Below are positions 8,534 to 12,598 of a stretch of DNA of 64,000 bases, in pieces (position 1 is the first letter of the stretch; the number at the start of each line of letters is the position of its first letter). Origin of the DNA: Escherichia coli (GTDB lineage Bacteria > Pseudomonadota > Gammaproteobacteria > Enterobacterales > Enterobacteriaceae); the NCBI RefSeq assembly GCF_050920415.1, contig NZ_CP169309.1. One strand, 5' to 3'. The notes under the pieces were generated by a model, which saw only the letters and a list, made by a program, of their open reading frames with translations, made no database searches and had not been told where the DNA came from. The translations under genes and the position numbers were made by a program.

Positions 8534-9724
8534 TTAAGACAGCGCCTGGGCCAGCAGCGTAATCGGGTGCTCGCAGCGAAGGCTTGTAGACATTTCAATC
8601 TGCCATTTGCAGGTTTCGCAGTCGGTGACCACCAGATCTGCGCCGCTTTCTTCTATCTGACGGAACAGTGGTGCGCCGATGGCTTGTGAGGTTGGGTAGT
8701 TCTCTTTTTTGAAACCGTAAGTTCCGGCAATACCGCAGCACTGGGAATCCAGCACCGTTAACTCAAGCCCCGGGATTTTACGCAACAGTTCCAGGGTGTA
8801 GAGTGTCCAGCCCATTTTTTCCATATGGCACGGGGTGTGATAAACCACTTTTAGTGGCAGCGTTTTCAGCGGTAACGTTTTTCCTTCGTCCAGCTTGCGC
8901 CACAGCCAGCGGGTCGCCAGTTCGATGTGATCGCGTAAGCCTCTGTTGTCGACATTCAGCACTTCCGGGTACTCGTCGCGCAGAGCAAACGTACAGGTCG
9001 AGGAGGTGGCAATCACCGGAATGCCTTTTCCCCCCACAGCTTCGCGGATCGACTCTACATTCGTGATTGCTTGTTTACGTGCTTTATCGGTAAAGCCGTT
9101 GGCGATGAGCGGCACGCCGCAGCATTTTTCTTTGCTGAGCAGTTGAACGCCGGTACCCATCGCATTGAGCACTTTAATTAAATCTTTACCTAACTGCGGA
9201 TGGTTGTAGTTAACGAAGCAGCCGTGAAAGAAAGCCACCTGGTCTTTATATTGCGCTTGCTGAGCCGCCACGCTGCGATACCAGCGACGAAACGTACCGA
9301 AGGAGTATTTCGGTAGCGTGCGGCGATGATCGATTTTTAACGCCGCATCAAGCAACTGCCGCACTGGTTTCAGCGAGGTAGCGGTGTTGACGATTGGAGC
9401 AAACGGCGTGGAAACGCTACCCATCAGGTCGGTATGACTCAACACAAAATTGCGCAGCGACGGGCGCGTGGTGTCATATTTCGCCCGCGCGCGCTGGATG
9501 ATATCGCCAATCTTCACATCGGACGGGCAGGCGACTTCGCAACGTTTGCAGTTAATACAATATTTCAGTGCCTCGTCATACAGTGCACCATCTTTTAAAC
9601 GCAGACGCTCGCCATCCGGCCCGGCTTGTTTTGGCCCCGGATAGCTGGGATTCACCCGGCTCACCGGGCAGGCGGTGGTGCAGACGGTGCACTTAATGCA
9701 GTTTTCGAAGCTGGTGTCGTTCAT
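8534..9724 (-). CDS. glpC: Anaerobic glycerol-3-phosphate dehydrogenase subunit C (Fe-S)
   Basis: ORF 8534..9799; start placed at ATG 9724 ([21 protein letters not shown]...), which overlaps the glpB stop (ATGA); two CxxCxxCxxxCP ferredoxin motifs and C-terminal Cys-rich CCG domains. Confidence 0.9.
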
Positions 9725-10980
9725 TGTTGGCCTCCTGCGCGTTGGGCAATTTGTTGAGCGGCATGTAAAGCACTGACGGCACAAACACCGCCGCCGCATC
9801 CCTGGGCAATGGGATCAAATCCGCCCAGCACCGAACCGATGACAAATAGGTTCTCAATGGTTTTCCCCGCCTGCGACGGGCGCAGCGCCTCATCAGTGGT
9901 GACACCGAACTGCTGCCACGGCTGCGGCGCAAAAAAATCTCCCTTATACCATTCACCCCGCGTAGCGGTTTGTAGTACATCAAGACCAATAATTGGTTCA
10001 CGAATGCCTTCACGTTCCGCTACCAGTCCGCCACTAAAGAAACTGCCGCTGGCGAGCACGGCAAAGCGTGGACGCAGCGGGATATCGGCGTGATTGCGGG
10101 TCCAGATTTCATTCACCACGCCATTTTTACAGGTCACTTTTTTCACTTCATCGCCCGGCATCCACACGCCACCCTGGCGCACAAACTGGCGCTGTAACTG
10201 GTTTTGCAGACGAATGCCCAGCACTGAAGGTGGTAATGTCGGCAGTAACATTAATGAACAGGGCAATTGCTCGTTCAGCCACCGCCAGAGTTTGTCATCA
10301 GCCAGGCCGAAGCAGGCGGGCATCAGGATCATTTCGCTGGTATTGGCGACAGGAATAAGCGCATCAATTAACAGAGGCCAGTTTTCTTCGTTATCAAGGA
10401 AACGGGCGATATTCACCGCGCGGAACTCGGTGGCGTTATTGCGCAGGATATCCAGTTCTGGCAGCTCTATTTCTGCGGTTTCAACATTAAGATCCAGTTC
10501 GCGCAATGAAGCCGCCGCAAGATGCGCCTGAAAATCCATCAGGCCGCTAATTCCCACTACACAAATTTTCTTCGCGGGCAGCGGCCAGACGGGGACTTCT
10601 GGCGAACTTAGCCAGGTAGAGCGCAGAGTACCGAGCGGCGTAACTCGCTGGTGAGCCAGCTCTACGCTGCCCTGTAATTGCGCACCGCTTTCAGCGATTA
10701 ATGTCTGTGCCTGACAAGCGAGATCGAGCACGCGTTGTGGCCCGAGAAGAGAGTATGGATGGGCAGGTGCCTGATGACACAAAGATTCCAGTCCACTGTG
10801 AATGTCTGTCACCGGCTGACCGTCAGGCAGATGGCTCAGCAAATCCAGCGATCCGGATGAGAAATGCAGCGCGCTTTGACCACGAGTGACAATGGCACAG
10901 CGCAGGCCGTGTTTTTGCAGTTGCAGGCCACAGAGTAATCCGGCGAGCCCGCCGCCCATAATGACAGTATCAAAGCGCAT
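9721..10980 (-). CDS. glpB: Anaerobic glycerol-3-phosphate dehydrogenase subunit B
   Basis: ORF 9721..11208; start placed at ATG 10980 ([15 protein letters not shown]..., FAD-binding GxGxxG); 419 codons; overlaps glpA 3' end by 11 nt. Confidence 0.9.
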
Positions 10981-12598
10981 CTTTCTGCTCCTTCTCCAGA
11001 CCACAAAGTCCCTGATAAACCCAACGGGTAAACTCGCTTTCGCGCAATGCGTCTCCCCAGGCGATGGGTTGCACGCCTTTCCAGCGTTCGTTAAGGAAGG
11101 TGGAAAGTTGCTCGATAGATTGCGCGGACGTCGTGACGTTAAAACGCTGTAGCAGTCCGGCAGCGCGGCAGGCGCAGAGCTCGCCCTGGCAGGTTCCCAT
11201 CCCCACACGGGTGCGACGACGTAAATCCAACAGGCTGTTAACGTTTAAATTTTCTACTGCGTACTGCACTTCACCCGCAGTTACCGCTTCGCACTCACAT
11301 ACCAGGCTGCGGTGCAGACGGCCTTCGCTAAGCCAGGCAGGCGTGCGATCGCCATGACGATAAACCGCAGAACCGCGCAGCGGGGCAGGCAGGGAGATGA
11401 CTTTACGCAAGGTAACTTCAGCGGGTTCCTGTGAACCTGGAAGTGCCAGATCGGCGGTCGTACAGGGGCGCGTATTGCCCAGCTTGCGACATACCGCGTC
11501 GGTAGCCCATTCCGCCATCAGCCGATAGGTCATCAGTTTGCCACCGGTGATGGTGATAAATCCGTCCAGACCATCGCGTTCAGCATGATCGAGCAGCACG
11601 ATACCGCGACTGACGTTACGCCCGCTCGGATCGTCATCGCTGGCAACCAGCGGACGCACGCCAGAGTAGGCCCGTAAAATACGCGTTTTCGCCATCACGG
11701 GGGCCAGTTTTTCCCCTTCACGCAGCAGAATATCCACTTCTTCTGCCGTCACTCGATTATCGTCAATCTCGTTGTAATCAATACGTAAAGATGTGGTGCC
11801 AATCAGCGAAATGGTATCGCCTGGCACCAGAATATCGGCGTCAGAAGGTTTACGGCAGCGGTTGATCACATGCTGATTAATGCGGTGATCCATAATCAGA
11901 AGCGACCCTTTCGCCGGGAACATGCGAATGCGCAGATCGGCATATTCCGCAATATGTTGCCCCCAGATCCCGGCGGCGTTCACCACTACAGGCGCATGAA
12001 GTGCCTGAATTTCGCCAGTGAGATGGTTACGTACACGAACGCCACACACCGTCGCGCCTTCACGAATCAGACCTGTCACTTCGTGCGCGGTGAGGATAAT
12101 GGCACCGTGTTCTTTCGCATCGAGCATGTTCGCTGCGGTCAGGCGAAATGGGTCAACAGTGCCATCCGGAACTTTTACCGCGCCAATCAGTGCCGGGTTA
12201 ACGGAAGGTTCGATAATGCGTGCTTGCTGCGGATCAATGGCTTCAGCACTGATTCCAGCCTCTTCGCAAGCACGAATAAAAGTGGCCTGGAAGGAGAGGT
12301 CATCTTCCGGCAGGGTGATAAACAGGCCGTTGGTCGGTTCAACGCAGTGACGTGCAATGCGTTTTAAAATCTGGTTTTCACTAATACATTCGCGGGCCGA
12401 TTCCGCATCGGTTACCGCATAGCGTGCGCCGCTGTGCAGCAGACCGTGGTTGCGCCCGGTCGCGCCTGTTGCGATGTCGTGGCGCTCAACCAAAATCACG
12501 CGCAGCCCGCGCAGGGCACAGTCGCGGGCAATCCCGGCTCCCGTTGCGCCGCCGCCAATGATAATCACGTCACTTGATTGCGAGTCGCGAGTTTTCAT
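10970..12598 (-). CDS. glpA: Anaerobic glycerol-3-phosphate dehydrogenase subunit A (FAD)
   Basis: ORF 10970..12670; start placed at ATG 12598 ([26 protein letters not shown]..., dinucleotide-binding motif); 542 codons. Confidence 0.9.

Follow-up and report, generated by a model that had tools for sequence, protein, structure and literature searches.

Coupled gene pairs in Escherichia coli and the stretch under study

The closest described counterparts of the gene junctions studied here are the coupled pairs of Huber et al. (2019, PMC6728339; 2023, PMC10666635). Spacings of -4 and -1 nt are by far the commonest between neighbouring genes in E. coli and in 1,695 species, and among longer overlaps those in the -8/-11/-14 phase are several-fold commoner than those in the other phase; moreover, pairs spaced at -8 to +10 nt are enriched 4.5-fold for subunits of heteromeric complexes (PMC10666635). 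When native E. coli pairs overlapping by ATGA were tested, four of five proved strictly coupled, with a variable contribution of the Shine-Dalgarno (SD) sequence (PMC6728339). Whether coupling proceeds by RNA unfolding or by reinitiation of 30S or 70S ribosomes is still debated, and the models have been reviewed (PMC12548453). Here we analyze ten junctions at which a stop codon and the next start codon overlap, all lying in a stretch of 64,000 nt of an E. coli chromosome (contig NZ_CP169309.1; the whole stretch is hereafter called the window), with emphasis on the two junctions of the glpABC operon.

These ten junctions are the ordinary compact cistron layout of well-known E. coli operons, that is, already known, textbook biology. 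We are highly confident that they represent the normal compact junctions of glpABC, nrdAB-yfaE, yfaA-yfaT-yfaS-yfaQ-yfaP, atoSC, atoDAEB, ada-alkB and napFDA, with translational coupling as the most likely mechanism.

Ten overlapping stop/start junctions

Coding sequences (CDSs) annotated in NZ_CP169399.1, which is near-identical to the window and differs from it by an IS2 within its glpQ and by about 80 extra nt between nrdA and nrdB, were placed on the window via their end sequences, and each was checked as a single clean open reading frame (ORF); all the re-mapped CDSs translate cleanly. A preliminary description of the window had listed ten overlaps under the span 8534-12598, which is bounded by the glpC stop and the glpA start. 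In the sequence of the window itself, all ten are present with the lengths given there, and they are identical in the reference annotation of E. coli K-12.

Eight of the junctions belong to the co-directional -4/-1 class, reading ATGA, TAATG or TGATG. An overlap of 4 nt (ATGA) is found at glpB/glpC (9721-9724, minus strand), yfaA/yfaT (29176-29179, plus strand), atoA/atoE (39376-39379, minus strand), atoS/atoC (42266-42269, minus strand) and napD/napA (60929-60932, plus strand), while a single base is shared at nrdB/yfaE (TGATG, base 18446, minus strand), atoD/atoA (TAATG, base 40026, minus strand) and ada/alkB (TAATG, base 54794, plus strand). The other two overlaps are 11 nt long and fall in the -8/-11/-14 phase class, the start lying 8 nt upstream of the stop: glpA/glpB, with ATGCGCTTTGA at 10970-10980 on the minus strand, where the glpA TGA lies across codons 3-4 of glpB, and napF/napD, with ATGCACACTAA at 60669-60679 on the plus strand.

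The window contains 31 pairs of co-directional neighbours, and in 16 of these the spacing is within +/-20 nt. A spacing of exactly -4 or -1 occurs in 8 of these 16 close pairs versus about 0.8 expected under even spacing (binomial P = 3e-7, the null being 2 of 41 possible values). The window is not unusually overlap-rich for E. coli, as spacings of -8 to +6 account for 11 of its 31 pairs versus 707 of 2,987 pairs (24%) genome-wide (PMC10666635; P = 0.09).

Of 35 control genes within the window, unrelated to these junctions, 5 also have an ATG overlapping their stop codon, which makes the overlap motif weak evidence when taken alone. It can also be a decoy: glpT/glpQ (14228-14237) and yfaQ/yfaP (35985-35994) both read TAATGnnATG, where the ATG that overlaps the TAA by 1 nt is out of frame with the downstream gene and the true start comes 5 nt later, leaving a 4-nt gap. 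The ten junctions are genuine, since at each of them the conserved reading frame of the downstream gene starts with the overlapping ATG.

Start codons at the ten junctions

One could argue that some of the overlaps are annotation artefacts produced by the preference of gene callers, the true downstream start being a longer one upstream or a later, internal one. A bias of gene callers and curators towards -4/-1 junctions does exist, the control genes show that the motif may arise by chance, glpB, glpC and yfaT have longer in-frame starts, and the automated start at the neighbouring yfaT/yfaS junction is probably wrong (see below). Nevertheless, we regard this explanation as extremely improbable, because, walking upstream in frame, those three are the only ones of the ten downstream genes with a longer start, the overlapping ATG being already the first start of the ORF in the other seven. 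No upstream alternative is found for yfaE, atoA or atoC; an in-frame stop closes the frame 2 codons upstream in atoE, 4 codons upstream in alkB and 6 codons upstream in napD, again with no alternative start in this last gene. For glpB and glpC the long starts are missing or closed by a stop in many species and the aligned start is conserved, as detailed in the next section.

The SD sequences preceding these starts are strong (duplex dG of -6 or stronger) in seven of the ten downstream genes, with values of -9.6 for atoE, -7.2 for alkB and -7.1 for atoA, and weak in yfaE (-2.2), yfaT (-1.8) and atoC (-4.0). In the case of yfaT the sole alternative is a GTG 9 codons upstream, and the annotated start yields a signal peptide. 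NapA begins with MKLSRR..., which we take to be a twin-arginine signal; starting at the next in-frame ATG (codon 8) would drop the RR. Both the NapA motif and the YfaT signal peptide thus need the annotated starts, which speaks against an artefact.

Counted from each annotated start, the Pfam domain models set in at residues 1-20. The first matched residue is 10 in GlpA (DAO), 4 in GlpB (FAD_binding_2, with profile position 1 aligned there), 6 in GlpC (Fer4 dicluster domain), 9 in YfaE (Fer2, profile position 1 falling at about residue 4), 7 in AtoC (receiver domain), 5 in AtoA, 1 in AtoE (position 1 of the SCFA_trans profile), 5 in NapD (position 1 of the NapD profile), 18 in AlkB and 20 in YfaT (DUF1175, the profile numbering being in register with the residue numbering). 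Because the models begin so close to the starts, moving to the next in-frame start within the gene would truncate the conserved domain in most cases.

The preliminary description had used the overlaps to support the operon assignments and the choice of compact starts over those of the longest ORFs. Both conclusions stand, on evidence independent of the overlap motif: conservation of the glp starts across 24 loci, long glp starts that are absent or closed in many species, SD motifs, Pfam boundaries and the K-12 annotation. The overlaps as an argument for the starts fare less well, given the frequency of the motif at control genes and the fact that a choice of start exists in just the three genes named above; the argument is moreover inapplicable to the start of glpA, which is first in its operon and so does not lie at an overlap junction. 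Taken together, the sequence evidence indicates that the annotated starts at the ten junctions are correct.

We also looked for N-termini or start peaks of these genes in the supplements of the TRAINSPOTTER N-terminomics, INRI-seq, Genome Majority Vote, StartLink and kasugamycin translatome studies, and none of these supplements gave them. INRI-seq shows a single peak outside the annotation, lying 20 nt upstream of glpB, which could not be interpreted, and the kasugamycin translatome ratios for napD and yfaE are around 1 and uninformative.

The glpABC starts across 24 loci

In the window, and likewise in the annotations of NZ_CP169399.1 and K-12, glpA (10970..12598, minus strand) encodes the 542-aa anaerobic glycerol-3-phosphate dehydrogenase subunit A, and is followed by glpB (9721..10980, minus strand, 419 aa) and glpC (8534..9724, minus strand, 396 aa), all three with clean translations. 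GlpA, GlpB and GlpC share 96-99% protein identity with K-12. We compared 24 glpABC loci, namely the window, K-12 and 22 fetched loci from Escherichia spp., Citrobacter, Intestinirhabdus, Enterobacter, Superficieibacter, Kluyvera, Cedecea and one Bacteroidia metagenome-assembled genome (MAG).

The aligned start codon of glpB is present in all 24 loci (ATG in 23, GTG in one). Its longer starts are much less constant, a GTG 76 codons upstream occurring in 4 of 24 loci and a GTG 8 codons upstream in 10 of 24; five loci are without any upstream start. The N-terminus that results from the aligned start is the Rossmann beta1-GxGxxG motif. Regarding glpC, the aligned ATG is kept in 21 of 24 loci. The window has longer starts at ATG+25 and TTG+20 codons, of which the ATG+25 is missing in 13 of 24 loci, and a stop codon stands immediately upstream of the aligned start in 7 loci.

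Twenty of the 24 loci keep the glpA start at ATG 12598; the exceptions are one frameshifted assembly, two Cedecea-like loci and the Bacteroidia MAG. In the window two longer in-frame starts, 24 and 17 codons upstream (12670 and 12649), give an ORF of 566 aa. This ORF owes its existence to one extra A, since a run of seven A at 12619-12625 (minus strand) in the non-coding leader, which is A6 in K-12 and most relatives, brings the ATGs 12649 and 12670 into frame. In nearly all the other loci the ORF is closed 1-10 codons upstream, and 19 of the other 23 have no in-frame upstream start.

The SD sequences of both downstream genes are embedded in the gene before. That of glpB, AAGGAG at 10988..10993 (minus strand; duplex dG -6.4 kcal/mol), lies within the last glpA codons and is found at the same position in 20 of 23 enterobacterial loci, with AAGGAA in one and ACGGAG in Cedecea davisae and RIT693. 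That of glpC, AGGAGG at 9731..9736 (minus strand; dG -10.0 kcal/mol), lies inside the 3' end of glpB, and its GGAG core is kept in 22 of 23 enterobacterial loci, locus L013 having GGAAGG. These cores keep a fixed distance from the start, whereas the bases between SD and ATG vary freely.

At glpA/glpB, 21 of 24 loci have an overlap of 11 nt, whereas Cedecea davisae, RIT693 and the Bacteroidia MAG have one of 4 nt (ATGA); glpB and glpC overlap by 4 nt in 19 loci, by 1 nt in three, and by 14 or 17 nt in two. Overlap length thus varies between lineages, which implies small indels near the 3' end of the upstream gene, yet a short overlap of some length is kept at both junctions in every sampled lineage and none shows a spacer.

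All 24 loci have the genes in the order glpA-glpB-glpC. Between the overlapping genes there is no room for a terminator and a promoter, and a consensus scan of glpABC for promoters and terminators returned no more sites than in shuffled sequence. From this layout the overlapping genes are predicted to be co-operonic.

The yfaT/yfaS junction

The compact start is not the better one everywhere. In the automated annotation of NZ_CP169399.1, yfaS begins at GTG 29823 (1504 aa), leaving a 23-nt gap after yfaT, and this start falls in the middle of a signal peptide and truncates it. Starting instead at ATG 29733, which is the start of K-12 b4500, gives a protein of 1534 aa (MDTQRF...) with the signal peptide restored, a better SD and an overlap of 67 nt with yfaT. 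This longer yfaS start is probably correct, and preferring the compact junction is therefore not safe as a general rule. Of note, yfaS is intact in the window and a pseudogene in K-12.

Translational coupling as the proposed mechanism

Coupling at these particular junctions, and the route it takes, we infer from general knowledge. The downstream start shares one or four bases with the upstream stop, or precedes it by 8 nt in the 11-nt cases, and the ribosome-binding site (RBS) lies inside the end of the upstream CDS, so that a ribosome terminating on the upstream gene would end on or beside the next start. From there it may reinitiate at that start, helped by the embedded SD, or it may keep the site unfolded for a fresh ribosome. 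In either case coupling would link the output of the two proteins, which would suit GlpA/GlpB/GlpC, AtoD/AtoA, AtoS/AtoC, NapD/NapA and NrdB/YfaE. Eight of the ten junctions, being at -4 or -1, fall within the spacing range of reinitiation (about -8 to +10 nt), and for yfaE, yfaT and atoC reinitiation would be the most plausible route of translation because their SDs are weak.

Several points weigh against coupling. The papers and supplements searched yielded no experimental work on these particular pairs. Overlapped and non-overlapped genes of the window have the same predicted accessibility of the translation initiation region (TIR; 0.44 vs 0.46, P = 0.61), and the overlapped contexts have a lower folding energy (minimum free energy, MFE), but this difference is confounded by the GC-richer coding sequence in which they lie. 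In bioBF, the remaining one of the five pairs that Huber et al. tested, translation began de novo in spite of the ATGA overlap (PMC6728339), and overlaps of 11 nt lie just outside the -8 to +10 range treated as predictive of reinitiation (PMC10666635).

Predicted RNA structure was also tried as a means to tell reinitiation from de novo initiation; it failed as a discriminator, accessibility being equal and MFE confounded by GC.

Some of these same observations would fit a view in which compaction of the genome and drift of stops and starts left the overlaps as neutral by-products, each gene being translated independently from its own SD with no functional coupling. The strong SDs of seven downstream genes could recruit ribosomes de novo, as happens at bioBF, and TIR accessibility does not set the overlapped genes apart. 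Moreover, the shifts in overlap length between lineages, from 11 to 4 nt at glpA/glpB and from 4 to 1, 14 or 17 nt at glpB/glpC, mean that the exact overlap geometry is not fixed. However, at neither glp junction has drift opened a spacer in any of the lineages sampled; yfaE, yfaT and atoC have a weak SD or none; and both the strict coupling of four of the five E. coli ATGA pairs tested (PMC6728339) and the enrichment of short-spaced pairs for complex subunits (PMC10666635) run counter to this view. We therefore judge neutral drift unlikely, and retain translational coupling as the reading of these junctions.

A further proposal takes the 11-nt overlaps of glpA/glpB, which most Enterobacteriaceae retain, and of napF/napD as a distinct coupling geometry and, separately, reads the extra A in the glpA leader as giving an N-terminally extended GlpA; we hold it to be very unlikely. 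On this proposal the terminating ribosome might move about 8 nt backwards to a start set by the strong embedded SD, and the downstream/upstream translation ratio of the 11-nt junctions might differ from that of the ATGA junctions in the same operons. The extended GlpA could in principle be made, and then only if transcription began further upstream than it does in K-12. Ordinary compact junctions with translational coupling thus remain our account of all ten sites.

The value of the analysis is one of quality control, in that the gene starts and the operon structure used for the window are sound. The starts of the longest ORFs mislead at glpA, glpB and glpC, and the start with the shortest gap misleads at yfaS. 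Nothing new is added on translation or on these operons.

The window and its relatives

The window is a piece of E. coli chromosome that extends from ais to napA and corresponds to K-12 2.30-2.366 Mb in reverse orientation, with a DNA identity to K-12 of about 94-98% throughout. A 5-kb query around the glp locus matched 5,421 of 5,426 complete E. coli genomes, with 100% identity to NZ_CP169399.1 and 90-95% to most of the others; just 18 of the 5,421 matching genomes exceed 95% identity over glpABC-glpT (glp region 8000-13000). Judged by this identity to K-12 and by the small number of close matches, the source of the window is a divergent, deep-branching E. coli lineage.

Other features were observed outside the ten junctions. 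An island of low GC content (about 32%) at about 15450-17000, between glpQ and inaA, is absent from K-12; it holds a 368-aa ORF (15531-16637, minus strand) which has no Pfam match and appears as a frameshifted hypothetical protein in the annotation of NZ_CP169399.1. At 22621-23592, the autotransporter adhesin gene yfaL survives as a remnant of about 1 kb, annotated as a partial pseudogene, whereas the K-12 copy, between ypaB and ubiG, is 3.75 kb long. Tandem repeats of 113 nt occur at 59070-59283, between mqo and eco, and at 47098-47300, between rcsC and rcsB, both matching Rfam naRNA4 (REP325-type nucleoid-associated RNA / BIME elements). Rfam also places the gene of the small RNA MicF at 50959-51052 (minus strand), between rcsD and ompC, as expected for the locus.

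Comparison with known systems

Compared with K-12, the operons glpABC (b2241-b2243), atoSC, atoDAEB, ada-alkB, napFDA, nrdAB-yfaE and yfaA-yfaT have the same genes, order, lengths, starts and overlaps. The window differs from K-12 in the extra A of the glpA leader, which creates the spurious longer ORF, and in its intact yfaS.

The coupled pairs of Huber et al. (PMC6728339, PMC10666635) have the same -4/-1 geometry as eight of the ten window junctions. As in those pairs, the genes are co-directional and belong to known operons, the SD is mostly embedded in the upstream gene and several of the pairs encode physically interacting partners. In contrast to the pairs whose coupling was measured, the window pairs are candidates for coupling, and two of the junctions, with overlaps of 11 nt, belong to the rarer 'phase 1' class (-8/-11/-14) rather than to -4/-1.

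A likeness is also seen to the systems coupled by RNA unfolding, such as atpHA and rpmI-rplT (PMC12548453), in that the downstream RBSs of the window lie inside translated upstream sequence, and because of this position an upstream ribosome would necessarily melt any structure at the downstream RBS. The window junctions differ from those systems in having no distinctive sequestering structure predicted, the unpaired probability from -15 to +4 being as in the non-overlapped genes of the window.

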